The notes below the pieces were generated by a model that was given only the letters and a program-made list of their open reading frames with translations, made no database searches and had not been told where the DNA came from. DNA of 64,000 nt from an uncultured Thiomicrospira sp. (GTDB taxonomy: Bacteria; Pseudomonadota; Gammaproteobacteria; CAKMZV01), in contig OZ239628.1 in the NCBI GenBank assembly GCA_965195345.1, positions 1,088,001-1,152,000 of the forward strand, in the 5' to 3' direction. Positions 43,235 through 59,368 of this stretch are shown here, piece by piece (within the stretch, counting starts at the first letter, position 1; every line of letters begins with the position of its first letter). Both the position numbers and the translations under genes were made by a program.

Positions 43235-44386
43235 CTACAAGCGCTTCTTTTTCATGGCATTGTGCCATTCATCTTCTTCAATATGTAAGTAGCGTTGCGT
43301 CGTTTCAAGGCTCTCGTGTCTTGCTGTTGCTTTAAGAAACCGCATATCAACACCGCTATCGGCTAAATGTGTCAAACCAGTGTGTCGCAACCAATGTGTA
43401 GAGGTTTTTCTCAATCGCTCAGCTTCATAAGGATCAACGTGTTCAAGCTCTAATGCAGCTTCAGCAACGCAACCTTTGACAATTCTATAAACCATATCCG
43501 CTGTTATCGCACGAGTTCCATCCAGTGAAGTGAGCAAAGGTTCATGGGAAGAGGGGGTAGGGGTGGCAGGTAGATTGCGGTGTAGTCGATAACGCTCTAA
43601 CGATTTCATCATCTCTTCTGATACGGGGACTTTCCTTGTTTTATTACCTTTTCCATGAATAAGCCACCACCAATTACCCCTGTCTTTGTAAAAACTACTC
43701 ATAGAATGCTTTACCACTTCGCTAACACGAGGCATCTGTAAATAAAGTAATGCAAATAAAAAACGCATTCGTTCCTTTTTGGCGATTTCTTTGGGGTCAT
43801 TAGATTGCTTACTTTCAATAAAGCGCCAAAGGAAATCCCACAGTTCCCGTGGTAGATAGCGCTCAATAGTTGCACGTTTGTCAACATTTCTACGGCCACT
43901 TTTTCCCATCAAGCGTATAGGATTACCTCTGAGATACCCTGCGTCAGTGAGGAATGAGAAACAACGTCCAAGAATAGTTAAAGCTAATTCGCGACTGGGA
44001 TCAGATAATGGACCAGAAAAAGGTTTCCAATGTTTATGATGTCGCGGGCGTTTTGGTCCACACCAAACTTCTGCTGGTGACGGATTACGCATAAAGCGCC
44101 AATAAGCGGTTATGTCCTCAACATCAAGGCTTGATATTGGCTTTCGGCAATCTACCAAGCACCAGCGATACAAACGTTCGACTTCTTTGCGATAGCTTCG
44201 GAAAGTTTGCGGTGAGTCTCGATATAAATTCAACCACGCCCCAATGGCTTCCAAATCATCATCCGCTTTAATCAAAGAAGATGGGGTGGCATTTCGATTA
44301 GTACCGAAACGGCCATTGAGCGTGTCAGGGAGAGTTAATGGCGTTTCAATGGGTTTGATAAGATCTTTGGAATTGTGCATGCGCAT
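43235..44386 (-). CDS. tyrosine recombinase (Xer-like/TnpS-like resolvase type)
   Basis: SAM-like N-terminus (T.RSYRKEVER), catalytic R (PRVSE), K (GKGNK), HWLRH, RH, TQRY all intact. Confidence 0.93.
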   Translation of the reverse strand: MRMHNSKDLIKPIETPLTLPDTLNGRFGTNRNATPSSLIKADDDLEAIGAWLNLYRDSPQTFRSYRKEVERLYRWCLVDCRKPISSLDVEDITAYWRFMRNPSPAEVWCGPKRPRHHKHWKPFSGPLSDPSRELALTILGRCFSFLTDAGYLRGNPIRLMGKSGRRNVDKRATIERYLPRELWDFLWRFIESKQSNDPKEIAKKERMRFLFALLYLQMPRVSEVVKHSMSSFYKDRGNWWWLIHGKGNKTRKVPVSEEMMKSLERYRLHRNLPATPTPSSHEPLLTSLDGTRAITADMVYRIVKGCVAEAALELEHVDPYEAERLRKTSTHWLRHTGLTHLADSGVDMRFLKATARHESLETTQRYLHIEEDEWHNAMKKKRL

Positions 44387-44442
44387 CTCATTAAATTTTC
44401 AATTTAATGATTATAACATCTTGTTAAAAAAGAATATATGTA

Positions 44443-44470
44443 ATTCGTGATTATGAAGATAATCACGAAT
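44443..44470. other. palindromic 11-6-11 recombination site (site A; attL of prophage 1)
   Basis: ATTCGTGATTA-TGAAGA-TAATCACGAAT, perfect inverted arms; the tandem duplication begins inside it. Confidence 0.85.
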
Positions 44471-44856
44471 GGAGGCTAAAAACTGCCGGATATTTAAGCA
44501 ATGAAAACGGAAATAATCGATCAAATTATGAACCGCTTATATCGTTCGAATCTTCTAAAAAATCACGGGTCAAGGAAATGATTGTTGATGAACTTGGTGA
44601 AGTTGGTGCAAATGCTTTAGAACAGCTATACAACAAGTATTTGCGCCCTTATGACGTTAATCAAATAGGCATAAATGGGATATATAGAATTATTAATAAA
44701 TTTGATGCCTCATTCCTCTCTACTTTCGCTTTTAGATTGAAAACAAAAGAATACAGCTTTATCGCTAACGTGATCGCCGACATGCTACGCACGGACGAAT
44801 TAGGCGGTGATGAAACAATGGATATTCCTGTTTTTACCGCCGTGAAAATAGCCTAA
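44455..44856 (+). CDS. 133-codon reading frame open from the att core; candidate alternative repressor C-terminus (ORF track calls 44578-44856)
   Basis: No stop between GAA 44455 and ATG 44578; no start codon upstream; conserved in copy 2. Confidence 0.65.
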   Translation, partial: EDNHEWRLKTAGYLSNENGNNRSNYEPLISFESSKKSRVKEMIVDELGEVGANALEQLYNKYLRPYDVNQIGINGIYRIINKFDASFLSTFAFRLKTKEYSFIANVIADMLRTDELGGDETMDIPVFTAVKIA

Positions 44857-44878
44857 AGCCCCAATATAACGGGGCTTT
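44855..44878. terminator. bidirectional terminator-like hairpin
   Basis: AAAGCCCC-N8-GGGGCTTT between convergent frames. Confidence 0.7.
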
Positions 44879-44898
44879 CAGCGTTCTAAACCTTTGAT

Positions 44899-45258
44899 TT
44901 ACTTCGTCTCGTGATTATCTTCAGAGTTACGAACGTCATCAACCAGTTCAAAGCCAGTATATTGGGCGTATTTATGCGCCCACCATTGAGCGATTGACTT
45001 GTCTTTACGCGGGTCTTTGATCGCTCTTTGATAGTTTGATGCTGCGATCAATGCAAGCGGGTTTTCATTGAGTAAATCAGAGAAAACAAGACATGCACGA
45101 TCATCGAAAGAGTTTATCTCTTTTCTATAGCTTGATAGGGCTTGTTGTGATATTGATGTTTGTTTCCAAATTTTATAATCTGAATTGACACCAAGCGCAT
45201 TTTTAACGCGATCTAAGTATTCCGCCGTTGTTGGTATGTTTAGCATTTTTCCGTCCAT
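44899..45258 (-). CDS. phage HTH repressor (copy 1)
   Basis: YLD..K..LGV.SDY....IS...LS.YR pattern typical of small temperate phage repressors; divergent from early operon. Confidence 0.8.
   Translation of the reverse strand: MDGKMLNIPTTAEYLDRVKNALGVNSDYKIWKQTSISQQALSSYRKEINSFDDRACLVFSDLLNENPLALIAASNYQRAIKDPRKDKSIAQWWAHKYAQYTGFELVDDVRNSEDNHETK
44907..44934 (-). other. second, inverted recombination site (site B) inside repressor 3' end
   Basis: TCTCGTGATTA-TCTTCA-GAGTTACGAAC; 15 bp exact reverse complement of site A spacer plus right arm. Confidence 0.8.
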
Positions 45259-45283
45259 TGGTATAGTACATAATTAAAGTATA

Positions 45284-45360
45284 CAATAAATATGGTTCAA
45301 CCATTACTATGTTATAAACCATAATCATGGTTGACTTATACTCCATAATCATGGTATATT
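45284..45360 (+). promoter_or_regulatory. early promoter with operator repeats (copy 1)
   Basis: TTGACT 45331 / TATATT 45355; CCATAATCATGG at 45319 and 45343, degenerate copies at 45284 and 45301. Confidence 0.75.
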
Positions 45361-45518
45361 CTTGGCATGGACAAAATGCTAAACGAAAAAACCGCCATCA
45401 ATCTATCAAACTCAACGAAATCAAAAGCGGTTATTAGCATACCGTCCATTGATTGGAGAGCGGGCGTTTTTTCTATGGAAACGCCCATTCTCCACCTTTT
45501 AACCAATGGAGCAAACTA

Positions 45519-45734
45519 ATGAGTAAACCTAAACTAACGATAGCAAAATTTAATAAGCAAGGACAAGTTGTCTATTATCTGTACGACAAAAAAGGAAAGC
45601 GATATAAGCTATATCATGATTTTCATTATAGCGATCTGGGCTTATACAAAGTTGATCCAGAATTACATGAACGCTTGAAGTTTGAATTTGGAATCATCAA
45701 CGAAATAATAGATAACGAACCAGGCGAGCGATGA
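45519..45734 (+). CDS. phage early protein (71 aa)
   Basis: GGAG RBS; protein identical in copy 2 from MSKPK onward. Confidence 0.7.
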   Translation: MSKPKLTIAKFNKQGQVVYYLYDKKGKRYKLYHDFHYSDLGLYKVDPELHERLKFEFGIINEIIDNEPGER

Positions 45735-46006
45735 ACACAACGACCAATAACCCTTTAATTGATAGGTTTTTAAAAGCGTCGCAAGAATTGCGTGCTGAAC
45801 AAGAAGCAGTTGAAAAAACCATCATTGAAGCTGGTGGCACTATAACTCCAGAAATGCTATTAGTACCAGAAGAAACCTCAATGAAATATTTAAACGCTTT
45901 AATATCTGTAACAGAACTTGCACGGGCGAGTGAATTCATCCGAGCCGATGTACTTAAACCAGATAGCAAAATTGAAGCAAACATTGCAAGCGAAACAATC
46001 CACTAA
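45731..46006 (+). CDS. phage hypothetical protein
   Basis: ATGA overlap; identical in copy 2. Confidence 0.7.
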   Translation: MNTTTNNPLIDRFLKASQELRAEQEAVEKTIIEAGGTITPEMLLVPEETSMKYLNALISVTELARASEFIRADVLKPDSKIEANIASETIH

Positions 46007-46011
46007 TCAAA

Positions 46012-46284
46012 ATGAGCGCACAAAGTAAAAAAGAGAGTTGGCGCGAGGCGTACAGGAATACCGCGCTGGCTTTCGTTGTGTCGCTATTGGCGCACAAATA
46101 CATAGTAGCCCCTGCTCTATCATGGCACATTGAGCAAGGTGGGGATCAAACAACGTTTATTGTTGCTTTTTTAGTAACCAGCTTCTATACCCTGCTTTCG
46201 CTTGGTCGTAATTATTTCATTAGGCGTATGCACGTTAAAAATAAGGTATTGCCACCGATGCCACCCATCCCACGCGTGAAATGA
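46012..46284 (+). CDS. small phage membrane protein (QSK..S..EA..NT...R.Y.IRR family)
   Basis: Two hydrophobic segments; motif seen in small phage proteins near methylases. Confidence 0.65.
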   Translation: MSAQSKKESWREAYRNTALAFVVSLLAHKYIVAPALSWHIEQGGDQTTFIVAFLVTSFYTLLSLGRNYFIRRMHVKNKVLPPMPPIPRVK

Positions 46285-47108
46285 AGTTGCCTCCGATCCT
46301 TAAATATTTAGGAGGTAAGCACTCTATTGCACCGCAAATAATTGCGCATTTTCCTGATCATCATACATACGTTGAGCCTTTTGGCGGTGCGGGTTCTGTT
46401 CTGTTCAGAAAGGAGCGTTCACGGGTTGAGGTTTACAACGATAAGTATGATCGCATTGTCAATTTGTTTTCTGTTTTGCGTTCTCCTGAACTTTCTGAAA
46501 AGTTACGCTCTTTATTAAAAAATACGCCCTATTCTAAAACTGAATTTTATCGATGTGCAGAGCAATCAGATGATCCAGTTGAAGACGCGCGGCGTCTTTT
46601 TGTAAGCGGGGCAATGTGTTTTGGAGGTTACAACAGTGGCAGAAATAGCATTACAGGATTTGCCCGTACTGCGGACGCAAACATAGCAAAAACTTACGCA
46701 AACAAGATTGAGCAGCTTGAACTTTTTACCGCCCGCCTGCAGGGAGTTACTTTTGAGAACGACAGTGCGGACAGAATAATAGAACTTTGGGATAGTACAA
46801 AAACGCTTTTCTATGTTGATCCGCCCTACTTACCAAGCACACGCAAACAAGCAAAATCCAAACAATATGCATACGAGATGAACGAGATGGATCACGTGGT
46901 GTTATTGGAGAGGTTAAAGAGTTGCGCAGGTATGGTGGTTTTGTCTGGTTATCCCTCTGATCTATATGATGAGTTTTTAGAGGGTTGGGAAACATTAGAC
47001 ATTAATAGCGTTGATGCAGGCAGCAACAAGCGCATTGATCGTGTATGGATAAAGCCAAATTCACACGCCCACCTGCCCCTATTCAATAAAGCGCAGGTAA
47101 TGGCATGA
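46281..47108 (+). CDS. Dam-like (D12 class) N6-adenine DNA methyltransferase
   Basis: YLGGK, YVEPFGGAGSV, VYND, FYVDPPY. Confidence 0.93.
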   Translation: MKLPPILKYLGGKHSIAPQIIAHFPDHHTYVEPFGGAGSVLFRKERSRVEVYNDKYDRIVNLFSVLRSPELSEKLRSLLKNTPYSKTEFYRCAEQSDDPVEDARRLFVSGAMCFGGYNSGRNSITGFARTADANIAKTYANKIEQLELFTARLQGVTFENDSADRIIELWDSTKTLFYVDPPYLPSTRKQAKSKQYAYEMNEMDHVVLLERLKSCAGMVVLSGYPSDLYDEFLEGWETLDINSVDAGSNKRIDRVWIKPNSHAHLPLFNKAQVMA

Positions 47109-47320
47109 AAAACTATACAAAATCAGATGCAACGCACTTACTGCAATGCCGTAGCTTTAATGGCAGTGTTGGAATTGATTATTCTATGGATTGCTTGCCA
47201 TTAAAAACAACAAAGAGAGGTATGGCTAAAGTTGTGGTTTTTGGTTTTCGTAGCTTTGTATCAGAGGATGTAAGGATCAGATATGTTAAACCTGATAGAT
47301 TGATCGAGAAAAGTAAATGA
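47105..47320 (+). CDS. phage hypothetical protein
   Basis: Operonic overlap; conserved in copy 2. Confidence 0.65.
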   Translation: MKNYTKSDATHLLQCRSFNGSVGIDYSMDCLPLKTTKRGMAKVVVFGFRSFVSEDVRIRYVKPDRLIEKSK

Positions 47321-47658
47321 TCCAGCGCGTTAATCAAGATGTCTTTAATAGTGATTTTAAAACGCTTGTGAATGTAACCGTTGGCGAATGTACGCCTATT
47401 GCCAGCACTTATTTAATTCGTGGTATTGATTTTGTTGTGGTTGTGTTGTCGTGTGATCTGATTCATTTGAATGAAGAATTACAGCGCATTCCAGAACACG
47501 GCTTATTCAATGTGCATACTTTTTCAGTGTTCAATGCTGAAAAACGCGAAGCGGATGCCGGCAGGACAGAAGATGCGATCCATGCCAACCGCATTTATAA
47601 CTCGCGAGTTGAATACTATAAAAGCATAGAGTATCAAAAAGTGCAGGGCTTGACGTGA
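47317..47658 (+). CDS. phage hypothetical protein
   Basis: Operonic overlap; conserved in copy 2 with mostly synonymous changes. Confidence 0.65.
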   Translation: MIQRVNQDVFNSDFKTLVNVTVGECTPIASTYLIRGIDFVVVVLSCDLIHLNEELQRIPEHGLFNVHTFSVFNAEKREADAGRTEDAIHANRIYNSRVEYYKSIEYQKVQGLT

Positions 47659-49205
47659 TGAGCGATTATTTTTCGCCCTTACCGCCCGCCCTCGCCCGCA
47701 TTGGCAATGCGCTTTCAGAAAATTACAAAGACTTTGAAGACTTTGAAAAAGGTTTTCAAGATGCGCCGTGCAGCCTTGATCTTGATGCTATTGAAAACGC
47801 CGGCGATCACATGGCGCATAAATGCTACGGCGCGCGTCTGCGCAACGGGGAAAAAGCTGTTTATGGCGTTGTGGGCGATGAATGCAGTAAATGGCGGGGC
47901 TATGCGGGGCTAACGCACACGGATGATGCCCTACTCGCCCGCGCTGAATCCTCAAGCTACTGGCGCAAGAAATGGAAGCAAGCAACGCTTCGCTGGTGGG
48001 CGCATACATTGATGAAAGAGGGATTAAACGCCAATTACATTGCTGATGATGTAGTCAACTTGGTAAATGAAGCACAAAAGCGTAGTAATAATTTGATGGC
48101 ACAGATGGTTGCCACGCATGAAGAGATGCCCACGTCTGCAAATACGATGGTATTACAAGATGCAATTGATAAATCGGTTAGTAATCCGCACATAAAGAAA
48201 GCAGAATTGATTGTGCGCCTGCGCGGTGCGCAGAAGTATGCGGATGAATTCGGGTATGTTTGCACATTCGTTACAGTTACAGCACCGTCAAAGTATCACG
48301 CGAGCAAATCAAGCAATCCAGATATAGACAATGCACCGCTTGAGAGCAATCCAAAGTATGAAGATTTTACCCCCCGCGAGACGTCTCAATATTTGGGGCT
48401 TGTGTGGAAGCGAGTGCGGGCGAAGTTTGGTCGCGATTGTTTAGATTATTTCGGTTTGCGGGTTGCTGAACCGCATCGCAACGGCACACCGCACCACCAT
48501 TATGTGATCTTTCACAAAAAAGAAGATACACAGCAGATGCGCGCCGTATTTCTTCATCAGGGACTAAAAGCGAGTGCGGGCGAATATGGAAGTAATCACC
48601 GCATTAAATTCAAAGCAATAGATCGCTCGCGGGGCGATGTTATTGCATACCTAATCAAATATTTAGCAAAGAACATACACAGCAGACGCGCGCCCCGCGA
48701 TTTATACGGAAATATTGGTTATGATGAAGCGTTGAAAGCGGTGACAGCGTGGGCAAAAGTCTGGGGTATTCGCCAGTTTGATCCCATAGGGATTCAACCT
48801 GTAGGCGTTTGGCGGGAATTACGGCGGGCATCGCGTGATTATTGCGGACGCAACGCCCGCAAGATTGCAGGCGACAAGTACCGCCCATTACGACAAGCAA
48901 TGCAGGCATCCACAGACGGCGATTATTATCGCTATATGAAGTTGATGCACCGCTACAGTAAAAAAATACGCCTATTGAAAGAAACAGTAAAAAACAAATA
49001 TGATGAAGATGTAACAAAAACGCAGGGGCTTTTATTTAAGGAAGCCAAGCCCGTCCAGATAATTACGCGCTTTATTAAATGGGTAATTGGAAAGGCAGAA
49101 GATTTGCTCGATGAAGCAGAACTTGAAGCATGGCAAATGAAGCAGCAGACGCAGGCGGGTATGCAGGCGATCGCGGGCGTTCGCCCCGCTGTAATGCAGT
49201 TATGA
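47655..49205 (+). CDS. rolling-circle replication endonuclease (P2 gpA-like HUH)
   Basis: FVTVTAPS.YH, GLRVAEPH..GTPHHH, Y..KY.AKNI, AWA..WGIRQF, WRELRR. Confidence 0.93.
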   Translation: MMSDYFSPLPPALARIGNALSENYKDFEDFEKGFQDAPCSLDLDAIENAGDHMAHKCYGARLRNGEKAVYGVVGDECSKWRGYAGLTHTDDALLARAESSSYWRKKWKQATLRWWAHTLMKEGLNANYIADDVVNLVNEAQKRSNNLMAQMVATHEEMPTSANTMVLQDAIDKSVSNPHIKKAELIVRLRGAQKYADEFGYVCTFVTVTAPSKYHASKSSNPDIDNAPLESNPKYEDFTPRETSQYLGLVWKRVRAKFGRDCLDYFGLRVAEPHRNGTPHHHYVIFHKKEDTQQMRAVFLHQGLKASAGEYGSNHRIKFKAIDRSRGDVIAYLIKYLAKNIHSRRAPRDLYGNIGYDEALKAVTAWAKVWGIRQFDPIGIQPVGVWRELRRASRDYCGRNARKIAGDKYRPLRQAMQASTDGDYYRYMKLMHRYSKKIRLLKETVKNKYDEDVTKTQGLLFKEAKPVQIITRFIKWVIGKAEDLLDEAELEAWQMKQQTQAGMQAIAGVRPAVMQL

Positions 49206-49212
49206 ACAAGCC

Positions 49213-49252
49213 AACGCGGGCGGGCGTTCCAAAGCTCTACCCGCGTTTTTTT
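49213..49252 (+). terminator. intrinsic terminator after rep
   Basis: AACGCGGG...CCCGCGTT stem plus T run. Confidence 0.7.
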
Positions 49253-49263
49253 GGTTTTTCTTA

Positions 49264-49290
49264 AAACTTGGACTTGTATCAATAACTGTA
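49264..49290 (+). other. putative rolling-circle origin (nick site)
   Basis: AAACTTG/GACTTGTATCAATAACTGT resembles the P2 ori (CCTCG/GAGTCCTGTCAATAAC) and phiX174 ori (CAACTTG/ATATTAATAAC) as recalled; identical in copy 2. Confidence 0.7.
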
Positions 49291-49348
49291 CGGAGATTTA
49301 GAAGAAAGGAAATATTTACCAGGGCAAAAAAATAATTAGAGGTGGTCA

Positions 49349-49525
49349 ATGGAAAAAATAGAAATTTACGAAGAAGCTTCTGAAATTGAGGAGGCTACCA
49401 CGCGCATACTGCAAAGCATGAAAGCGCAATTATTGCCTGCAGAAGTACGGACGTTGTTACAGCGCACAGCTGTATTGAATTTAAGAATGGCAAGCGCGAT
49501 TAAAAAACTACAGGAGGAGCGGTAA
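49349..49525 (+). CDS. 58-aa phage protein (not in ORF track)
   Basis: GAGGTG RBS, MEKIEIYEE...LQEER; TAATG overlap with next gene. Confidence 0.7.
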   Translation: MEKIEIYEEASEIEEATTRILQSMKAQLLPAEVRTLLQRTAVLNLRMASAIKKLQEER

Positions 49526-49758
49526 TGACGGAATTTATATGCAAGGCGGTTATAGATGGATTGGATTCAGAAATATACAAGAATACTCAAAACAGGCTAT
49601 ATGCGAAAAATGTTAATGGCATGATGAGTTTTCAAACGAAGAAAGGACAAGCACACCTTCAAAGCCTGATTGACAAGGCAAACAAAGTGCCACCGCCTGC
49701 AACAGATGACAATTCACAAGAGGATGATCCAGATGATGATAGTATCTTCTTAATTTAA
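49525..49758 (+). CDS. phage hypothetical protein with acidic tail
   Basis: GGAGG RBS; located where PM2-like viruses place small regulators. Confidence 0.6.
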   Translation: MTEFICKAVIDGLDSEIYKNTQNRLYAKNVNGMMSFQTKKGQAHLQSLIDKANKVPPPATDDNSQEDDPDDDSIFLI

Positions 49759-49767
49759 AGGTAGAAC

Positions 49768-50229
49768 ATGAGCAAAGAAAACACAAACACCATTGATACC
49801 AGTGATGAAACCATCAATAAAGGCTGGGACACGATAGAAACTACTATTATTGATAATCCTGTCATTGATCCAATTGAACCAGATGAACAAGCAGAAGAAC
49901 AAGCAGCTGAACACGATGATGCAGAATGCGCGGATATGCTTTATAAAATGCTGAAAATGGGACTGGGTAACAGCAAAGTCAATGTTGATATTACGAAAAT
50001 AGATGAAGAAATAATGAAATGCGCTCAATCATGGAATGCTTTTATTAACAAAAGATTTGGTGGTATGCATGGTTTTCTTGAACGCTACGGCGTTGAAGTA
50101 ATGATGGTATTCAATACAGGATATTTGCTTTTTACAGCAGCTGATCATAGAAAAGCACCCACTGATCAAGAAGAGGTCAAAGCTGGTGCAGCACCTAAAA
50201 CAACCACGCAAACAATAGACCCATTATGA
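49768..50229 (+). CDS. acidic protein preceding packaging ATPase
   Basis: Acidic N-terminus, hydrophobic C-terminal stretch; position typical of PM2-like proviruses. Confidence 0.65.
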   Translation: MSKENTNTIDTSDETINKGWDTIETTIIDNPVIDPIEPDEQAEEQAAEHDDAECADMLYKMLKMGLGNSKVNVDITKIDEEIMKCAQSWNAFINKRFGGMHGFLERYGVEVMMVFNTGYLLFTAADHRKAPTDQEEVKAGAAPKTTTQTIDPL

Positions 50230-50885
50230 GAAAAGACGGAAAAATCACGCTTATATTAGGCGTTACTGGATCGGGTAAAACATCGATCGCAAAGGCTTTG
50301 ATGAAATCGCACAAGCGTATATTAGCGTATGATCCAAAACTGGAATTTTGCCAGTTATCAGGATTTGTTAAAACAGAAAGCCAACGTCAATTGTTGGAAA
50401 AACTAAAAGCAACAAAGGCAAGTGGGCGAATCGCGCATTGTGTCGCGCAATCCTCGAAAGAATTTGACTTTTTCACGCGATGCTTTAGCAATTGGGCGCG
50501 TCAAAAGGAATGCACGGCCGTTGTTGAAGAATTAGCAGCTGTTACCAGTGTAGGAAAGGCGCGCGATGGTTGGAATATAGCAGTCAATCAATCAAGAGCA
50601 TTAGGAGCTAATGTATTAGTTTTGGCACAAAAACCCGAAGAGATAGATAAAAGCACACTGGATCAAGCAAAAGAGATTTATTGTTGTCAAGTGTCGGCGA
50701 AGACTGCAAGCTATATGGGCGATCGCTTTGGATTAGATGCTAAAGCATTAAAATCATTTCCAAGTGAACCATTGAAGTTTATTCGCATAATTGCAGGTAA
50801 AGGATTAGATTTGTCGAATGGTAAAATTCAATTCAAAGATAAAGAACCGATGCTTTACAATGGGAAGAAAGAATTAAAGGGGTAG
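50226..50885 (+). CDS. FtsK/HerA-type genome packaging ATPase (PM2 P9-like)
   Basis: Walker A GVTGSGKT, Walker B VVEE, SR..G....AQ.P..IDK; 219 aa with no Zot-like TM. Confidence 0.9.
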   Translation: MRKDGKITLILGVTGSGKTSIAKALMKSHKRILAYDPKLEFCQLSGFVKTESQRQLLEKLKATKASGRIAHCVAQSSKEFDFFTRCFSNWARQKECTAVVEELAAVTSVGKARDGWNIAVNQSRALGANVLVLAQKPEEIDKSTLDQAKEIYCCQVSAKTASYMGDRFGLDAKALKSFPSEPLKFIRIIAGKGLDLSNGKIQFKDKEPMLYNGKKELKG

Positions 50886-50887
50886 AG

Positions 50888-51145
50888 ATGAGCACAAACA
50901 AACAAGCATTAGCAATATTTGAGAACGACAAGCTAAACCATGTTTTATATGGTGCAGTTGCGGGCGGTCTTGGTATAGCTATGACTGGATCAATGACGGG
51001 TGGCTTGTTCGTTTCGGCTCTTGTTGCTGGTGGCGTTGAAATCTACGATTATGTTACAGGACGAGGAACGTCTTCTTTTCTTGATTTTCTCGCAACGATC
51101 AGCATCCCTGCTTTGTTATTCGCGGTTGAGTTGCTTATTAAGTAA
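50888..51145 (+). CDS. small VanZ-like membrane protein
   Basis: DK..H...G, E..D...G......D..AT pattern. Confidence 0.6.
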   Translation: MSTNKQALAIFENDKLNHVLYGAVAGGLGIAMTGSMTGGLFVSALVAGGVEIYDYVTGRGTSSFLDFLATISIPALLFAVELLIK

Positions 51146-51172
51146 CAATCCCCCCAACCGCGAAAACATGTG

Positions 51173-51197
51173 AAGCACCCTGCGGGGTGCTTTTTTT
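51173..51197 (+). terminator. intrinsic terminator
   Basis: AAGCACCC-TGCG-GGGTGCTT plus T run. Confidence 0.8.
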
Positions 51198-51237
51198 ATT
51201 CTTTATTTATCGGGTCGTCATTTTTCTGTATTTCATA

Positions 51238-52554
51238 TCATAGATGATCTTTAGGATCGAAGTCTTCAGGAAAAATTGTGTGGCTGTTATAAGTAGCCCC
51301 TTTTAAATTCGCCTTTTGTAAATTTGCGTATTCTAAATTCGCCTCTTTTAAATTCGCACCTTCTAAATTCGCCTCTTTTAAATTCGCCTCTTTTAAATTC
51401 GCCTCTTTTAAATTCGCCTCTTTTAAATTCGCCTCTTCTAAATTCGCCTCTTGTAAATCCGCCCCTTGTAAAATCGCCCTTTCTAAATTCGCCACTTGTA
51501 AATCCGCCCCGTATAAATTCGCCCCTTTTAAATCCGCCCCGTATAAATTCGCCACTTGTAAATCCGCCCCTTTTAAATTCGCCCCTTTTAAATCCGCATC
51601 AAATAAAGACGCCTTTTGTAAATTCGCCCTTTCTAAATTCGCCTCTTGTAAATTCGCATAAAATAAAACCACCATTTCTAAATACGCCTCTTTTAAATTC
51701 GCCTCTTTTAAATTCGCCTCTCTTAAATTCGCCCTTTCTAAATTTGCCTTTTCTAAATTCGTTTCTTTTAAATTTGCCTTTTCTAAATCCGCCCCATGTA
51801 ACTTCGCCCTTTCTAAATTCATCCCTCCTAAATCCGCCACTTGTAAATTTGCAACCTCTGACGCATCTATTTTCTTACTCTGTTGTAGTGTTGGCATTGT
51901 TGGTTTATTGGCTCTTTCGGTGCTCGTGAGTATCAAGCCTCTAGTAATACTATCAATCTGCTCGCTAAAAGCGGGATAATTTCTTTTTAATATTGCTAAT
52001 GACTTAACACCAATACAACGACTCACTAATTCAGGTGATGCCAGTAAATTATAGCCATGAGATAGTGTTGATGTGTTGATGCTCTCGTCTGTTTTTTCAA
52101 CTTGCTCCTGTGATTTTTCAATCTGATTTTGTGATATTTCAATCTGAATTTGTGTTTTTTCAATTTGTTCTCTGGTGTCATTTGTTCTGAAGTACCACAA
52201 ACCAATTAATACAGGGAGAGATAGTAATAGAAAGCGCATAGAGTGTCCTGCATAATTATTTTCGTCAGTGATTTTCCAAATATCTAAAATAAATTTAGTT
52301 ATCTCAGTAGCAGATAGGAAACCCAATACAGCTAATGCAGAAAGGAAGAACAATCGATTCATCTTTTTTTCAGATGGTTTTTCTGGATTCTTCATGAAAA
52401 AATACACTACGAAGAATGTAGCGAAATATGAAAGGCAGTAGAGAAGGAGCACTAAAGGACTTTTAATTCCCGTTTGTTTAAGCGTTTCCATTGTTCTTCC
52501 GTTTAGAACAAGCATTAAAGAATCTATATTTTCCGTTTGTATTAACCATTCCAT
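51238..52554 (-). CDS. membrane-anchored pentapeptide repeat protein (prophage cargo)
   Basis: Three hydrophobic segments, short coiled coil, then >30 A(N/D)Lxx repeats. Confidence 0.9.
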   Translation of the reverse strand: MEWLIQTENIDSLMLVLNGRTMETLKQTGIKSPLVLLLYCLSYFATFFVVYFFMKNPEKPSEKKMNRLFFLSALAVLGFLSATEITKFILDIWKITDENNYAGHSMRFLLLSLPVLIGLWYFRTNDTREQIEKTQIQIEISQNQIEKSQEQVEKTDESINTSTLSHGYNLLASPELVSRCIGVKSLAILKRNYPAFSEQIDSITRGLILTSTERANKPTMPTLQQSKKIDASEVANLQVADLGGMNLERAKLHGADLEKANLKETNLEKANLERANLREANLKEANLKEAYLEMVVLFYANLQEANLERANLQKASLFDADLKGANLKGADLQVANLYGADLKGANLYGADLQVANLERAILQGADLQEANLEEANLKEANLKEANLKEANLKEANLEGANLKEANLEYANLQKANLKGATYNSHTIFPEDFDPKDHL

Positions 52555-52635
52555 TGTTCTTTTCCTTTTTATTTTGGTTTTGTTAGATTATCAAGTGAAT
52601 TTTACCCTCTCCGTCTGCGAAAGTTAAAAAAGTGC

Positions 52636-52666
52636 TTGACACGCGTCTGCATGTGTTTTGTATAAG
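52636..52666 (+). promoter_or_regulatory. candidate promoter of structural operon
   Basis: TTGACA-19 bp-TATAAG upstream of P7-like/capsid genes. Confidence 0.45.
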
Positions 52667-52708
52667 TCGCTTTTAATTATTAAATGGCTGTTTTACTTTG
52701 GAGAAAGA

Positions 52709-52834
52709 ATGAACAAAAGCACAATGAAAACGATTACGGGCGTAGTATTTACTGCTGCGGTCGCATTCGCAACGGTTGCAATTGCAACGCGTTTTAAGCC
52801 AGCACGCAAAGTGTTGAACGTTGACAACTATTAA
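52709..52834 (+). CDS. 41-aa membrane protein, PM2 P7-like (not in ORF track)
   Basis: MNKSTMKTITGVVFTAAVAFATVAIATRFKPARKVLNVDNY; GGAG RBS; immediately upstream of capsid gene as in PM2. Confidence 0.75.
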   Translation: MNKSTMKTITGVVFTAAVAFATVAIATRFKPARKVLNVDNY

Positions 52835-52843
52835 GGGGTTGCA

Positions 52844-53623
52844 ATGAGAATTAGACAACAAAAACTTGATTCGCCTAATGGAGGCGGATTTGATAACGAT
52901 TTTATTTTTACCCTGCCAAAAGGCATCAGCATTCATGAAGTGGCATTCGTGCTTTCTGCAATGGCTATAAGTGATGTCAAAAAGGTAGTGGTTGAAATAG
53001 ACGGCGTTACTAATGTTGAATGCAGTGGAGAAGATTTGTCCCTATTGCAAGCACTCTACTCAAAACCACAAAAAGACAACACTCTGATTATTCCTTTTTC
53101 AGGGCAAAACAGTCAAACGTGGCAAGGAGCAATAGACGGACTATTGACAATATTACCAAATGAACAATGCGTTATCCGCTTAAGCATTGGTGCTGGTAAT
53201 GGTAATGGTAATCCCTCAGTTGATGGTTTCATCCGTTATCAGTTTGCAACAGCTCGCACGGCATTACCAAGAATACAACGCATTCCCCTGCCCCAAGTTG
53301 AGATTGGCGAGCGTTTGTTTTCTTACCCCCATGCACGCCGTTTTGTTCGCACAATGATATTGACTGGTGGCGCACCTGATAAATTCAAGATTGTGCAAAA
53401 CGGGCAAGCGTTGTTTGTAACGACCGATGAATTAAATCGTTTCATGTTAGAGCGCAACGGGCTAACGCCTCAAGACGGGCATTTTGCATTTGTTCCAGCA
53501 ATGGAAGGTTTTGAAGCGGCTGACAAGCTCAATGGTGCTAATGCACGTATTGAATTTTCAGCAACGCAAGCGGGTGCAACGTCTGTGCTTATTCATACGA
53601 TCGAGCCTACTCAAGCGCAGTAA
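52844..53623 (+). CDS. double jelly-roll major capsid protein (PM2 P2-like)
   Basis: 259 aa beta-rich; aligns by eye with recalled PM2 P2 (L.S..., LP.G, K.V.VE.DG, N...LE..G, F..EG). Confidence 0.85.
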   Translation: MRIRQQKLDSPNGGGFDNDFIFTLPKGISIHEVAFVLSAMAISDVKKVVVEIDGVTNVECSGEDLSLLQALYSKPQKDNTLIIPFSGQNSQTWQGAIDGLLTILPNEQCVIRLSIGAGNGNGNPSVDGFIRYQFATARTALPRIQRIPLPQVEIGERLFSYPHARRFVRTMILTGGAPDKFKIVQNGQALFVTTDELNRFMLERNGLTPQDGHFAFVPAMEGFEAADKLNGANARIEFSATQAGATSVLIHTIEPTQAQ

Positions 53624-53970
53624 TGAGTAAACTTTCGTTGAATGACATCATTCGAGGCGGTCAAGACATCACCCGCGATATTGAAAACGCGGGTGATACT
53701 GATATTAGCAACGAGATAGGCAATGCAGGAACACGCTTATTGAATGAACCAATCAAATATTCACCCATCCACCCTACACAAGCAAGCATTGCGGGAAGCG
53801 AGCCTATTCATAAAACAGGCGCGCCATTGGCATTGTTTGGTGCAGGTGCGGGAGTTGGTGCGGGATATGGTTTATCGCAAGCCCTATCCTCCCCCATTGG
53901 GAAAGTAGGCTTGGCAGTGGTTGCTACTGTATTGGGTGCATTTGTAATTAAACGGTTTAAGTTAGCATGA
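53623..53970 (+). CDS. virion membrane protein (P3-like position)
   Basis: C-terminal TM plus basic tail, directly after capsid gene. Confidence 0.6.
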   Translation: MSKLSLNDIIRGGQDITRDIENAGDTDISNEIGNAGTRLLNEPIKYSPIHPTQASIAGSEPIHKTGAPLALFGAGAGVGAGYGLSQALSSPIGKVGLAVVATVLGAFVIKRFKLA

Positions 53971-54185
53971 TCTCGCCACTCGGACCCGTTTCAGCAGGTG
54001 GCGATATTTCGCCTGATCTATCATCAACCGCAACAAGTGGTGATGCAAGCAATGATAGTGAAAATAACTTTAGCTTTGGAGATAAGCACATCAACAACGG
54101 CGCGCAAGGCATTCCAGCATGGATTGCTGTTGCAGGTGGTATTTTAATCGCAGGTGGATTATGGTTTTTTGGACGGCGGGCATAG
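53967..54185 (+). CDS. virion membrane protein, PM2 P8-like
   Basis: Gly/Ser-rich SS.ATSG...FG then C-terminal TM and basic end. Confidence 0.7.
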   Translation: MISPLGPVSAGGDISPDLSSTATSGDASNDSENNFSFGDKHINNGAQGIPAWIAVAGGILIAGGLWFFGRRA

Positions 54186-54517
54186 ATGAAACATTTGTGC
54201 CTGCAGGCATTAAAAAAGCACTTGGTAATGCAATCAATGCAATCAAGATTGAATGTATCAAGGGCGTTTGTCAATGCTGGAAATTTAACAATGGGCGTTT
54301 CATTACCCGCATTGAGCATAAGGAGTTAGTGATCGTGGCATTCACTGGACGCAATACTTCAAATGTTTTTTCAGCAATCTATCAATCTGCAAAGAATGGT
54401 GGTTTTCAATCGATCCGCATTCACACGAACAATCCAAAATGGGTGCGCTTTATTCGCATTAAAGGGTTTGTATTTGATGAATTAGCAAGCGGTGTATATC
54501 AGTTGGAGGTTGCGTAA
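54119..54517 (+). CDS. conserved corticovirus-type protein (GNAT-like pattern)
   Basis: SIR.HT......R.....GF motif; located between P8- and P10-like genes; start uncertain. Confidence 0.55.
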   Translation: MDCCCRWYFNRRWIMVFWTAGIDETFVPAGIKKALGNAINAIKIECIKGVCQCWKFNNGRFITRIEHKELVIVAFTGRNTSNVFSAIYQSAKNGGFQSIRIHTNNPKWVRFIRIKGFVFDELASGVYQLEVA

Positions 54518-54933
54518 TGGGCGGTAGTAGCAGGAGCAGAACGTCCTCAGATGTTTACAATCAACAGCAGGATAGATCGGTTGTTTTTGCACCAAGTGGT
54601 AACGGAAATCAAACGGCCGTAACGGGCAATGTTGGCGGTGATGTAGTTATTGAGAACACGGATCATGGCGCAATTGAAGCCTCGTTTAGCTTTGGCGAGC
54701 GCATTGGCGCATTGGCGATTGATAGAAGTGCCGATTCAGCAGAGTTTGCAATTGAGGCGGTACAAGATGCCCATCGTGAAGCAAGCGAAAGCGCAAGCGA
54801 GCAAAACAAAGCATTCAGTGGCGCAATCAGTGCATTCAAATCAGAAACGCAAGGGCTTGGTAAAAACCTCTTGATCGTTAGCGGAGCGGGCGCGTTTTCT
54901 TTAGTAGCGATTGTATTTTTAATTAAGAAATAA
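54517..54933 (+). CDS. virion membrane protein, PM2 P10-like
   Basis: MGGSS.S.TSS, TDHGAI, C-terminal TM. Confidence 0.7.
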   Translation: MGGSSRSRTSSDVYNQQQDRSVVFAPSGNGNQTAVTGNVGGDVVIENTDHGAIEASFSFGERIGALAIDRSADSAEFAIEAVQDAHREASESASEQNKAFSGAISAFKSETQGLGKNLLIVSGAGAFSLVAIVFLIKK

Positions 54934-54934
54934 C

Positions 54935-55366
54935 ATGGCAAGAATAAACATAAAAGCGCATGGCGCGATCGATTTACCAATCAATCAGCGATTTATTCTT
55001 TTTCTTAGTAGTTCACGTGCAACTATTGAAGGCGTGCGGATCACTCGAGGATTAACAGTTGAGCGTTCAGATATAGAGCCACTAATCCGCATTGAAAATC
55101 CAAGCACCACTTCTACAACAATTGATTATGTCATAAGTGGCAACCGCATTATTATCCCTGTCAATGATGTAGTAATCAGCGAAGCAATAGCAATTAGTAA
55201 TGCGGTAGAAATTGCCAATGCTGTTGAAATAAAAAACCAAATATCAGAGGCAAAAATTGCGCGCAGTGTCGTCATTGGTAACTACTACATAGCGCATCCT
55301 GATGAAGTGCCAGAGGCAGAACATCCAGCAGACTTGCAAAAAATATTAGAGAAAATCGGAGTTTAA
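54935..55366 (+). CDS. putative penton/vertex protein
   Basis: Beta-rich N-terminus, I.N.V.I repeats; position before spike gene. Confidence 0.45.
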   Translation: MARINIKAHGAIDLPINQRFILFLSSSRATIEGVRITRGLTVERSDIEPLIRIENPSTTSTTIDYVISGNRIIIPVNDVVISEAIAISNAVEIANAVEIKNQISEAKIARSVVIGNYYIAHPDEVPEAEHPADLQKILEKIGV

Positions 55367-55368
55367 CA

Positions 55369-55881
55369 ATGGCAAACAAATATCAATCTTACGAAGAACG
55401 ACAAAACGATCGCATTAGCGCATTGGAGCAAGTCAATGGTATAGAGGTCGATGATGGCAATGTTGGCATACCGTCTATCAAAGGCGAGCAAGGCGAAAAA
55501 GGCGAGCAAGGCATACAGGGCGTACAGGGCGTACAGGGCGAAAAAGGCGACAACGGTGCAGATGGGATAACGACTAACTATATTGATATAGACGTTGTAA
55601 AAAACCAGACCTACATAATTCCGCACTCGCTTGGTGCATTGCCTAAAGGCGTACAGTTGTCCGTAAAGATTACCGATGCTGAACGTAGTGATTTTTCTGT
55701 TAACAAATGGCGTTTAATTTCTTCTCCAACGGATTTTTGGAGCGGTCGCCAGCATCATGTAGGCGCAATAGTGGCAATAAATGTTTCAGAAATAGAGATA
55801 CAAACGGGGAATTTACTCTACCACGATGAATCAGACGATACGTCCATGGATGCTGGAACTGTCCGCGTCACTTATTTTTAA
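55369..55881 (+). CDS. collagen-repeat spike/fibre protein
   Basis: G-X-Y run (GEQGEKGEQGIQGVQGVQGEKGDNGADG) then beta-rich head with HSLG..P. Confidence 0.75.
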   Translation: MANKYQSYEERQNDRISALEQVNGIEVDDGNVGIPSIKGEQGEKGEQGIQGVQGVQGEKGDNGADGITTNYIDIDVVKNQTYIIPHSLGALPKGVQLSVKITDAERSDFSVNKWRLISSPTDFWSGRQHHVGAIVAINVSEIEIQTGNLLYHDESDDTSMDAGTVRVTYF

Positions 55882-55896
55882 TTTATAAGGAAAAAA

Positions 55897-56286
55897 ATGA
55901 GCAAATTTTTAGCATTTAACAAAAAAGGCGAGTGTGTAAGTATTGTTGATGAAAAAGTATTTCTAAACACAACCTATGCAGAAGCCCCTAAAGGCGCAAA
56001 TAAAAGAAACTTCACGAACTATGTTATTCGTGATGATGGAACAGTAGAGGAAAAATCAAAAAAAGAAATAGAACAAGAAGCAGTTGCAGGCTTATTGGCG
56101 GGCATAAAAGAAAGACGTAATGCCCTGCTCGCCCGCTCCGACTGGACACAATTGGCAGATGTTGCATTGAGTAATGAAGCAGGTGTGGAATGGACGCAAT
56201 ACCGCGCAAAGTTGCGTGCAATTGCTGATGGGATAACAACAGCCAAAGAAGCGGATGCCGTTGTTTTTCCTGATGAGCCTGCCTAA
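55897..56286 (+). CDS. tail-fibre assembly chaperone-like protein
   Basis: RN.LL..SDWTQL.D....W..YR..LR.I......FP..P. Confidence 0.8.
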   Translation: MSKFLAFNKKGECVSIVDEKVFLNTTYAEAPKGANKRNFTNYVIRDDGTVEEKSKKEIEQEAVAGLLAGIKERRNALLARSDWTQLADVALSNEAGVEWTQYRAKLRAIADGITTAKEADAVVFPDEPA

Positions 56287-56438
56287 TGGGTCAAGCTGTT
56301 GGATTTATTGCAGGATTTGCTATTGTGTATTTACTTTTATCGATAAAACCAACGGATAAACAGCTTGCAGAAAGTGGCAACACGATAGCACAAAAACGTG
56401 TTAATCATGATTATGTTAATGAATTTGGCAAGTTGTGA
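56286..56438 (+). CDS. 50-aa membrane protein (not in ORF track)
   Basis: MGQAVGFIAGFAIVYLLLSIK...; TAATG and GTGA overlaps with both neighbours. Confidence 0.65.
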   Translation: MGQAVGFIAGFAIVYLLLSIKPTDKQLAESGNTIAQKRVNHDYVNEFGKL

Positions 56439-56935
56439 AAGTAGGTTTATTTGCAGGCGCATTGCTTGCAGTTTTAGTCTTTTATTTAGGGAAAGAAATG
56501 CAAAGAAGAAAACCAAGAGGAATTAGAAATAATAACCCTGGGAACATAACGATAAATTTTAGCAATCGTTGGAAAGGTTCAATTCCACGCTCCCAAAACA
56601 CAGACGGTCGTTTTGTCCAGTTTATGACGATGGAAGCAGGCGTGCGCGCTATGACGATTGTGATCATCAACTACTACAAACGTGGATTGACGACAATACG
56701 CGAAATGATTTCAACTTATGCGCCCTCTTTTGAAAACAGAACGGACGCTTATATTGATCACGTTGAAGATCGGATTGACATTGATGAAAATCAACATCTT
56801 GATCGGGATATGTTCATTGAAAAGATACCGCTAATTGTCAAGGCAATAATCAGACATGAAAACGGCGAAACCATTGATCCTCAAGAAGTTTCAGCAGGTG
56901 TTTTTATGGGTAAAAAAGATAAAGGATTTTTATGA
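56435..56935 (+). CDS. membrane-anchored virion lysozyme-like protein (PM2 P5-like)
   Basis: RGIRNNNPGNI, F.....G.RA, YAP..EN.T.AY, AII.HENG. Confidence 0.85.
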   Translation: MKVGLFAGALLAVLVFYLGKEMQRRKPRGIRNNNPGNITINFSNRWKGSIPRSQNTDGRFVQFMTMEAGVRAMTIVIINYYKRGLTTIREMISTYAPSFENRTDAYIDHVEDRIDIDENQHLDRDMFIEKIPLIVKAIIRHENGETIDPQEVSAGVFMGKKDKGFL

Positions 56936-57345
56936 TATTTGACTGGGTTGCAGACATATTTGAAACAAGTTCAAAGCACATAGACGAGTGGTTTACCACT
57001 GATGAAGAACGCGACAAAATGCGCAACGAATTTGCACGCATTAAGAACGCTGTTTCTATTAAGGTGCTGGCATTAGAAAAACAGCTGCTAACGGCGCAAA
57101 CAAAAATAATTACCGCAGAGGCACAAGGGCAATCATGGCTACAACGCTCATGGCGTCCAATAACGATGCTTACCTTTTTAATTCTGGTCGTACTTGATTC
57201 AGGTGGACACTTAGCAAATCCACTTGCACCCGAAGCATGGACGCTTTTGCAAATTGGGATTGGTGGGTATGTAGTCGGGCGAAGCGTTGAAAAAATCGCG
57301 CCTAAAGTAATTGACACATTGAATCAAAATAATGGACGGGTTTAG
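56932..57345 (+). CDS. holin (3TM GTA-type)
   Basis: AEAQG.SWLQRSWRP, GIGGYV.GRS.EK. Confidence 0.85.
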   Translation: MIFDWVADIFETSSKHIDEWFTTDEERDKMRNEFARIKNAVSIKVLALEKQLLTAQTKIITAEAQGQSWLQRSWRPITMLTFLILVVLDSGGHLANPLAPEAWTLLQIGIGGYVVGRSVEKIAPKVIDTLNQNNGRV

Positions 57346-57607
57346 TTTTTTTGAACTCATAGCGGGCGGTATTGGTGTTCAGCTGATCGCTAATTATTTG
57401 ATAACACAACGCGCAGTGCAGTCAGCTGTTCAATCAATAGACAAGCGTTTACTGGTTTTAGAACATAAACAAGCTGAAATGGAAAAGGAATACATTAGTG
57501 ATTCAGAATGCAAACACAGAATGCAAACGATAGAAACAGATAAATACAAAGAAATTGCGAAAAACTTAGAAAAAGCAGGTTACCACAAACCACAAACAAG
57601 ATTATGA
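57332..57607 (+). CDS. lysis-region membrane/coiled-coil protein
   Basis: N-terminal hydrophobic segment, IDKRL.VLE. Confidence 0.55.
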   Translation: MDGFSFFELIAGGIGVQLIANYLITQRAVQSAVQSIDKRLLVLEHKQAEMEKEYISDSECKHRMQTIETDKYKEIAKNLEKAGYHKPQTRL

Positions 57608-58008
57608 GCAAAACAGCACAAGAATTCCAAATAACGAAAACAACTAAAATATTTTCGCAAGCCAACAAAAATAGGAAGAAAGGCGAAAAGCCAGAATATT
57701 TTGAGATTATGGAAATGAATGAGCTGATGCCTATTGACCCATTGACAAACAAACTATATGAGCTAACAGCACCAGCACCAGCCAAGCGGAAAGCACCAAC
57801 CAAAGCCAAAGCACCAGCAAAGCGAAAAGCACCAGCCAAGCGAAAAGCACCAACCAAGCGAAAAGCACCAGCCAAGCGAAAAGCACCAGCCAAGCGAAAA
57901 GTAAGATCAATTATGTGTAAGGAAGGGCTTAAGGGTAACGGCGCATTAAAAAAGGGGCATAGGTTCTTAAAAGGTGGGCGCGTAGTTAAGGCAAAAGCAA
58001 AAAAATAA
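57604..58008 (+). CDS. highly basic histone H1-like protein with KRKAPA repeats
   Basis: About seven 18-bp/6-aa repeats at 57769-57900. Confidence 0.7.
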   Translation: MSKTAQEFQITKTTKIFSQANKNRKKGEKPEYFEIMEMNELMPIDPLTNKLYELTAPAPAKRKAPTKAKAPAKRKAPAKRKAPTKRKAPAKRKAPAKRKVRSIMCKEGLKGNGALKKGHRFLKGGRVVKAKAKK

Positions 58009-58147
58009 TTCCGTAGTATTTTCAGAAAGAACATTTACCAGGGCAAAAAAATAATTCCGTATTATTTTCAGAAAGAACATTTCCCTGGGCAAAAAAATAA
58101 TTCCGTAGTATTTTCAGAAAGAACATTTCCCTGGGCAAAAAAATAAT
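57997..58147 (+). repeat. 46-bp tandem repeat, ~3.3 copies
   Basis: Unit GCAAAAAAATAATTCCGTAGTATTTTCAGAAAGAACATTT(A/C)CC(A/T)GG starting 57997, 58043, 58089, 58135. Confidence 0.95.
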
Positions 58148-59350: not shown

Positions 59351-59368
59351 ATCGAACGGAGCAAATCA

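Follow-up and report, generated by a model that had tools for sequence, protein, structure and literature searches.

Tandem integrase-less PM2-like prophages at a probable XerL-type dif site of an uncultured Thiomicrospira, with a repressor-linked cassette that has probably been flipped

The genome of an uncultured Thiomicrospira sp. (GenBank assembly GCA_965195345.1, contig OZ239628.1) contains, at positions 1,088,001 to 1,152,000, a stretch of 64,000 nucleotides (hereafter the window) in which a tyrosine recombinase gene stands next to tandem PM2-like prophages. From left to right, in window coordinates, the locus comprises the gene of a 383-aa XerL-like tyrosine recombinase outside the repeated phage unit (43235-44386, minus strand; PF00589, E 5.6e-20), a palindromic site 56 bp further on (site A1, 44443-44470, unstranded), a first prophage copy of 13,834 bp (44454-58287, plus strand) and a second copy (58288-64000, plus strand), which belongs to a 14,313-bp unit extending past the window. 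The left end of copy 1 holds an orphan gene of 92 codons (orf92) and, convergent to it, the gene of a helix-turn-helix repressor, in which a second, inverted site lies (site B1, 44907-44934, minus strand). An initial annotation had read this arrangement as a phage inversion switch, in which the adjacent recombinase acts on A1 and B1 to exchange the C-terminus of the repressor. Our analysis confirms the observation behind this proposal and supports its interpretation in part: the window probably represents the left end of an array of integrase-less PM2-like prophages inserted at a XerL-type dif site, with a flipped cassette in the lysogeny module and the fusion frame as a by-product of that flip.

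Results

Two inverted dif-like sites flank orf92

Site A1 is a perfect 11-6-11 palindrome, ATTCGTGATTA-TGAAGA-TAATCACGAAT. Site B1, read on the minus strand, is GTTCGTAACTC-TGAAGA-TAATCACGAGA and overlaps the final codons of the 119-aa repressor frame (44899-45258, minus strand; ...S-E-D-N-H-E-T-K-stop). As had been annotated, the two sites are inverted relative to each other and have 15 exact bases in common, that is, the same spacer and 9 bp of one arm, which is far above chance. The window contains this 15-mer at four places, namely A1, B1 and their copy-2 counterparts A2 (58277-58304, unstranded) and B2 (58741-58768, minus strand), against 0.01 occurrences expected, and 0 of 100 shuffles gave four. 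Around its TGAAGA spacer, site B matches the dif arms at 9/11 positions in its good and 7/11 in its poor arm, and the good arms of A and B both point into the enclosed segment. The matches listed by exact 15-mer scans of viral and genome contig collections (at least 112 and at least 120 loci) were isolated, unrelated chance matches.

Site A1 and the adjoining recombinase gene are predicted to form the host dimer-resolution system

The arms of site A1, searched as ATTCGTGATTA-N6-TAATCACGAAT, are single-copy in six of 41 genomes (G000-G004 and G033, where G000 is the present genome), with one mismatch in G001. The spacer between them varies among the carriers: it is TGAAGA here, and TAAAGA, TTAAGA or TGTAAA in the relatives. 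When the DNA of 44400-45300 was searched in five relatives, only the site itself matched in all five. The recombinase has orthologues of 47-60% identity in six relatives (G001-G005 and G033); the site is present in five of these six other genomes with a strong recombinase orthologue (E <1e-100) and in none of the 34 remaining genomes. A search of five relatives that all have the site (G001-G004, G033) did not recover the phage capsid gene; in a search of five genomes of the order, it was found in G000 only.

The site is at 1.132 Mb in G000, a genome of 1.92 Mb whose cumulative GC skew is lowest at 0.229 Mb and highest near 1.199 Mb. Some 32 kb of the roughly 67 kb between the site and the skew maximum are inserted array. 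For Legionella species, the consulted sections of PMC9765430 give distances of 89 bp to 79 kb between dif and the skew inflection. Among the relatives, one flank of the site is syntenic and the other is not. The gene that flanks the site in G001 and G002 is the orthologue of a gene located at 77413-78693, beyond the window (64% identity over 274 aa); it follows that the DNA between 44471 and about 76,500 was inserted at the site.

Neither a XerC nor a XerD equivalog was found by model search in this closed, 99.7% complete genome, and the top genome match of both models was the recombinase described here, scoring 82 (XerC) and 77 (XerD) bits, where the cut-offs are 335 and 330. Four PF00589 matches occur in the genome, the other three in open frames of 192, 419 and 445 aa. 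Over its entire length, the 383-aa protein aligns with CBUA0010 of the Coxiella burnetii plasmid QpH1 (29% identity over 425 aligned columns, E 4e-49). CBUA0010 is probably the XerL of PMC9765430, as it is the only recombinase listed on QpH1 and has a palindromic site, GAAGTGATTA-TCAAAG-TAATCACC, some 160 bp upstream. A homologue on a Halioglobus plasmid (42.5% identical) likewise has a site, ATTCATGATTA-ACCCTA-TAATCATGAAT, about 90 bp upstream. On this Halioglobus pacificus plasmid (CP019045), the site occupies 1387-1412 and the gene 1501-2622, and the site is a perfect palindrome in which each arm deviates from site A at one base. Homologues of about 41% identity are common on Burkholderiales megaplasmids. 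The recombinase gene together with its site looks like a portable dimer-resolution module.

Conservation of the site in phage-free relatives, its position near the terminus, the lack of XerC and XerD and the likeness to XerL together identify site A1 and the adjoining gene as the likely dimer-resolution system of the host. By these indications, the 383-aa protein is the host's only Xer-like dimer-resolution enzyme rather than a phage integrase, and site A1 is the chromosome's own dif-type site rather than a phage inversion site, now serving as the left junction of the prophage array. Two parts of the proposed switch, the adjacent recombinase and site A, are thereby re-assigned.

The prophages are predicted to be integrase-less and to exploit the host enzyme

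Copy 1 encodes a P2-type capsid protein with a double jelly-roll (52844-53623; PF18628, 7.6e-13, and PF25513, 2.2e-16, for P2_N/P2_C), a small P-loop ATPase (50226-50885, Pfam) and a GPA-type rolling-circle replication protein (Rep; Phage_GPA, 47655-49205, Pfam). None of the genome's four PF00589 matches lies within 44471-76500, so no integrase was found in the phage by this measure. The array consists of three tandem units, the third of which starts beyond the window at site A3 (72590). Twelve base pairs past that site, the sequence resumes in a packaging ATPase gene, of which the C-terminal half is left (72590-72960; G000:C1:1160590-1160960); the gap in the third unit is a deletion that begins right beside the site.

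Sites A2 and A3 are identical to each other and differ from A1 in the left arm, TAAGTTGCGTA-TGAAGA-TAATCACGAAT. This is the form of the phage attachment site (attP), so that A2 is a phage-phage junction and no palindrome. Read from A2 and A3, attP has 17 bp in common with dif, namely the spacer and one arm; its good arm matches dif at 11/11 and its poor arm at 4/11 positions. In A1, the left arm is that of the host, and the spacer and right arm are identical in the phage; insertion therefore restores a complete dif on the upstream side, where it serves as the left junction (attL) of the array, and the downstream junctions A2 and A3 bear the poor left arm of the phage. All three junctions are of the A type, and B1 and B2 are intact inside the prophages. 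These features mark the prophages as integrase-less PM2-like (corticovirus-type), presumably Xer-exploiting elements (IMEX) residing at dif.

Population data were available as assembled contigs of four runs (X1-X4) from two samples of one study, where X1 is perhaps the source sample of the genome. In sample S2, one contig (X4, record 28) runs from the recombinase flank through dif straight into the remnant after A3, with both full prophages missing, and another (X2, record 11) passes from the same flank and dif into phage DNA with copy-2 alleles (44340-44564). Because two kinds of junction occur in this sample, the array is polymorphic or excising, and the A-type sites seem to be recombinationally active. 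A further S2 contig from run X4 leaves the reference at 43396, in the 3' part of the recombinase gene, with unlike sequence on its left, which hints at another arrangement.

About 130 bp upstream of attP lie three direct repeats of 46 bp that are 95-97% alike (57997-58147, plus strand); an accessory or replication protein might bind to them. The final gene before attP (57604-58008) encodes a lysine-rich protein with DUF1388-type repeats of six residues. When 43235-45400 was compared as DNA with 50,697 phage records, no match emerged.

The repressor is a P16 homologue and its immunity region differs between the copies

The 119-aa repressor of copy 1 is a helix-turn-helix protein homologous to PM2 P16 (Orf c; 33% identity over 78 aa, E 9e-11) and matches phrog_4441 ('HTH DNA binding protein') with residues 8-97 (E 2.3e-15). 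Members of the P16/phrog_4441 family are stand-alone proteins of about 92-98 aa, and the domain is complete in residues 8-97. The repressor of copy 2 comprises 114 aa (58733-59077, minus strand) and is 66% identical to that of copy 1 overall: the N-terminal 90 residues diverge and the last 19 are identical. A word-based protein search among sequences of 65-209 aa recovered only the genome's own two proteins (four candidates), and none of 158 candidates of 210-2000 aa scored as a repressor relative, which is weak evidence.

Upstream of the repressor gene, copy 1 has a divergent control region (45259-45521, unstranded) with a promoter-like site (45331-45360). Each copy carries a pair of operator-like motifs spaced 24 bp apart. 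In copy 1, this is the 12-mer CCATAATCATGG at 45319 and 45343; in copy 2, TATTGCGGT is found twice instead. With their differing repressor N-termini and operator-like repeats, the two phages therefore look heteroimmune. Sharp breakpoints bound the exchanged immunity regions (44985-45497 and 58819-59347).

The cassette between the sites is inverted relative to PM2

The gene orf92 (44578-44856, plus strand; 58412-58690, plus strand, in copy 2) looks like a real gene. Seven of its 12 differences between the copies are synonymous, and its sole match among 1,835,955,588 protein representatives is a 92-aa protein, 95% identical, that begins at the ATG. No significant Pfam or PHROG match was found for it; NCBIfam matches had E values of at least 0.04, far under the cut-off.

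In the PM2 record (NC_000867), P16 is followed by P15, a DUF3653 protein, with all genes directed leftward. The attachment site lies between them, about 87 bp downstream of P16, a position we took from the consulted sections of PMC12715192, where a one-armed 17-bp attP between p15 and p16 is described for dif-type PM2-like prophages as sufficient. Site B occupies this same position with respect to the P16 homologue and has the same polarity, its good arm facing away from the repressor. In the P15/XafT slot, in opposite orientation, stands orf92; it is convergent with the repressor gene and inverted with respect to the PM2 gene order, with site A beyond it as a second site. Flipping the cassette would restore the PM2 order. 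A scan of 20 phage proteins turned up no DUF3653 protein (P15/XafT), and the comparison of orf92 with PM2 P15 (E 0.17) gave no likeness to DUF3653. As site B is at the PM2 attP position with the same polarity, the layout probably is a PM2 module whose attP-to-orf92 cassette has been turned around. The cassette would then have flipped at least once by site-specific recombination, most likely by the XerL-type enzyme acting on both sites. In line with this, the spacer of this host, TGAAGA, is present in both A and B, though it varies among host species, which suggests that both are real recombinase substrates.

A flip would create an open fusion frame

In silico, inversion of the 470 bp at 44454-44923 turns the 119-aa frame into a stop-free open reading frame of 245 aa; in copy 2, the 114-aa frame becomes one of 240 aa. 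The in-frame fusion foreseen in the initial annotation is thereby borne out. So is its description of the plus-strand frame, which is open from 44428 and has its earliest ATG, GTG or TTG at 44578, where an AGGA just 1 nt 5' of the ATG gives poor Shine-Dalgarno spacing. In total, 50 codons ahead of orf92 contain neither a stop nor a start. The part at 44471-44577 (plus strand) shares the frame of orf92, lacks a start codon of its own and is a putative leader. A stop-free leader of 35 codons arose in 5.6% of 20,000 composition shuffles, and the prior for a matching phase is 1 in 3. With a codon-usage score of 0.114, the leader ranks at the 13th percentile among true coding windows. It scores higher than 97% of the 552 off-frame windows that lack a stop; of 378 intergenic windows without a stop, 34% equal or beat it. 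The two differences in the leader between copies 1 and 2 are both non-synonymous, too few for judging the mode of selection.

Between the convergent orf92 and repressor genes lies a G+C-rich hairpin (44855-44878, unstranded). A terminator in the segment had been annotated as bidirectional; the terminator stands, and it scores as terminator-like on the minus strand only. The arrangement is, as claimed, present in copy 2 as well. Copy homology starts at 44452, and the block 44452-44985 is common to both copies and about 98% identical, so copy 2, whose A2 left arm also differs, is no independent evidence.

In the contigs of the four runs, we found no strand-changing joint and no loose end at A or B. 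Contigs covering 44453-44955, 44863-45545 and 44730-44985 span site B in the reference orientation; such contigs come from X1, X2 and X3. Since contigs lose rare variants, the zero count argues only against a frequent second state. A degenerate 28-nt pattern covering the present and the flipped site-B junction had no match in metagenome contigs or in viral contigs; as the present form is missing too, these collections lack the phage and are silent on inversion. Among the 1,835,955,588 protein representatives, there was no fused repressor-orf92 homologue and hence none of the joined proteins of about 240 aa that the initial annotation had proposed to look for.

Weighing the possible roles of site B

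Taken together, we consider it probable that the array sits at a XerL-type dif, that its cassette has been flipped and that the fusion frame is a by-product. Several observations weigh against parts of this. The relative G005 has a recombinase orthologue of 47% identity and yet no site within two mismatches. The site is located about 67 kb away from the skew maximum rather than on it. With 29% identity to the Coxiella enzyme and 41-42% to the Burkholderiales and Halioglobus plasmid homologues, membership in XerL is by distant homology only. The right host junction (attR) is gone and copy 3 is truncated, so integration is deduced from the left and internal junctions only. The flip by XerL leans on synteny with a single reference phage, and PM2 itself has no second inverted site within four mismatches of its 17-mer, so the two-site layout is not general. 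The joint chance of a leader that is stop-free and in phase is only about 2%. Finally, two good arms and a host-specific spacer look selected, so that a functional role of site B fits better than a relic.

Such a role is what the initial annotation had in mind: the recombinase would reversibly invert the 470-bp cassette and convert the 119-aa repressor into the 245-aa orf92 fusion and back, as a lysis/lysogeny or immunity switch; the tail of the long form was put forward as a possible protease target. In a refined form, inversion would in addition transfer orf92, which now ends the late operon, to the repressor (lysogeny) operon and would make the repressor-gene junction a better attP, with arms of 7/11 and 11/11 instead of 4/11 and 11/11. 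Inverted sites that share spacer and 9-bp arm beyond chance, a fusion that is in frame in both copies, the leader without stop or start ahead of a poorly spaced Shine-Dalgarno motif and its codon score above nearly all off-frame windows are all consistent with this, and the two-site design looks selected. Moreover, the hairpin would stay between two convergent units in either orientation, the flipped state is the PM2 gene order, and the A-type sites appear to be active in sample S2. Against these points stand the absence of strand-changing joints from the contigs (as regards a frequent second state), a lone orf92 match of 92 aa with its start at the ATG, the P16/phrog_4441 domain that is complete in the stand-alone form, and the failure of any of the 158 longer candidates to score as a repressor relative, which counts for little. 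The leader has non-synonymous changes only (2/2, against 7/12 synonymous in orf92), a third of stop-free intergenic windows look as coding as it does, and copy 2 adds no independent support. The toggle as originally proposed is not supported by these results, and we regard a reversible switch as unlikely.

Site B might instead be a second attachment site, at which B x dif recombination integrates the phage in the opposite direction and replaces the last repressor residues by host-encoded ones, in the manner of the integration-dependent immunity known from mycobacteriophage BPs. The host-specific spacer and 9/11 arm of B, its overlap with the 3' end of the repressor gene and its canonical PM2-like attP position would suit this role; junctions A1, A2 and A3 are nevertheless all of the A type with both B sites intact, and a joint of B with host DNA occurs in no contig of the four runs, making this idea improbable. 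An arrangement like that of CTX would have the plus strand fold during rolling-circle replication, with A pairing to B, so that the resulting hairpin is the real attP. This has only a slim chance of being right: PM2-like virions contain double-stranded DNA, the loop of about 440 nt would hold a whole gene, and the hairpin offers a spacer and one good arm with no better second arm than the double-stranded site. One-armed 17-bp PM2-type sites are, moreover, described as sufficient in the consulted sections of PMC12715192. What the folded form can claim is the GPA-type Rep of the phage, a stem of some 22 base pairs, interrupted by a 4-nt bulge, by which A and B close 58270-58775 as single-stranded DNA (z = -2.25) and, by comparison with CTX prophages, the combination of a junction site with an inner inverted site. 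That site B resembles dif by coincidence and has nothing to do with recombination is very unlikely, to the point of being negligible; the low G+C content of the region is all that favours it, and four occurrences of the 15-mer in place of 0.01, species-specific spacer included, contradict it.

A flipped cassette at an exploited dif site would have come about as follows. The attP of the phage would recombine with host dif through the XerL-type enzyme, and prophages would stack in tandem. At least once, the same enzyme would have acted on A and B and turned the attP-to-orf92 cassette around. The stand-alone 119-aa form would be the working repressor, and the stop-free leader and the 245-aa frame would be by-products of the flip and not a demonstrated switch.

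Further features of the prophages

Each prophage carries a membrane-anchored pentapeptide-repeat gene on the opposite strand (51238-52554, minus strand, in copy 1), with a DNA periodicity of 15 bp. Past the window, pentapeptide-repeat genes are located at 65422-66891 and 73301-76424, with three paralogues in a row in the third prophage. The phage encodes a D12-class adenine methyltransferase (46281-47108). Copy 2 has extra early open reading frames (59876-60545) of 136 and 94 aa without a Pfam match, which are lacking in copy 1.

Discussion

The robust part of this finding joins two known kinds of system, the dif/XerL pair with its hijacking phage and the dif-type PM2-like prophages. As described in the consulted sections of PMC9765430, dif/XerL relies on the single recombinase XerL and on a dif with uninterrupted palindromic arms close to the terminus. 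The Thiomicrospira pair resembles that of the Legionellales in its uninterrupted dyad arms around a 6-bp centre with the inner bases TGATTA/TAATCA, in its position near the terminus with variable flanking genes, and in a recombinase of about 380-420 aa with full-length homology. The present recombinase is, however, only 29% identical to the Coxiella XerL. It lies 56 bp from dif, adjoining it as on the Coxiella plasmid, whereas the two are more than 400 kb apart in L. pneumophila. The hijacker of that system, LME-1, carries a partial dif mimic and leaves an intact dif upstream and a modified dif downstream (PMC9765430, sections consulted), and its attachment site in L. pneumophila contains TGATTA-N6-TAATC (PMC5071653, sections consulted). 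The prophages described here likewise carry a partial dif mimic, with an intact upstream and a modified downstream dif. They differ from LME-1, a T7-like phage according to the consulted part of PMC12407071, which mentions neither dif nor XerL nor inversion, in being a tailless, PM2-like array of three units with a second, inverted mimic.

With the dif-type PM2-like prophages of Vibrio and Pseudoalteromonas (PMC12715192, sections consulted), they have in common the double jelly-roll capsid, the rolling-circle Rep, the absence of an integrase, the one-armed 17-bp attP, a P16 homologue adjoining the attP position and tandem arrays at dif. The lysogeny module of those prophages is given there as P16/RstR - attP - P15/XafT. 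The Thiomicrospira array is a variant in several respects: it is associated with a XerL-type host enzyme instead of XerC/XerD, it has an orphan 92-aa gene in the P15/XafT slot and no DUF3653 partner that we could find, and its cassette is inverted and lies between two inverted half-sites, one of them in the repressor gene, in contrast to the single site of PM2.

CTX phage, which exploits Xer, carries two inverted dif-like sites about 90 nt apart near the prophage end, attP1 and attP2. The present prophages have two inverted dif-like sites by the prophage end and presumably exploit Xer as well, but about 440 nt with a gene lie between the sites, the virus is double-stranded, and pairing builds no better site. 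In the mycobacteriophages BPs and Brujita, the recombination site reportedly lies in the 3' end of the repressor gene, and recombination alters the C-terminus. The analogy drawn to BPs in the initial annotation is sound insofar as site B is within the repressor 3' end, where recombination would change the C-terminus. It fails for integration, as the prophage junctions are of the A type and located elsewhere with both B sites intact, and a host Xer-type enzyme takes the place of the phage integrase. Inversion systems that swap C-termini include the Rci shufflon, the Gin and Cin tail-fibre switches, hsdS shuffling and intragenic invertons. With these, the cassette shares inverted sites around a promoterless alternative 3' coding segment that comes into frame once inverted; unlike them, it was seen in one orientation in the contigs, has no dedicated invertase, and the gene on the segment has its own ATG.

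dif/XerL was described only in 2022. In the titles and abstract openings retrieved for 'XerL', LME-1 is the only named hijacker, and tailless phages are absent from the relevant ones. A tailless, membrane-containing PM2-like phage at a XerL-type dif would widen both the range of Xer-exploiting phages and that of dif-type double jelly-roll prophages, and the pairing of recombinase and site recurs as a compact module on Halioglobus and Coxiella plasmids. For annotation, the lesson is that what looks like an 'integrase' at this locus is a host gene, with dif half-sites marking the ends of the prophages. Among Xer-exploiting elements, an inverted second half-site is unusual. If site B is used, it would represent a novel route by which a phage rewires its repressor with the help of a host housekeeping enzyme, and, should the switch be true, the enzyme of chromosome dimer resolution would double as the driver of a phage decision. 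If site B is not used, the locus would be a record of lysogeny modules being rearranged by the very enzyme that they exploit.

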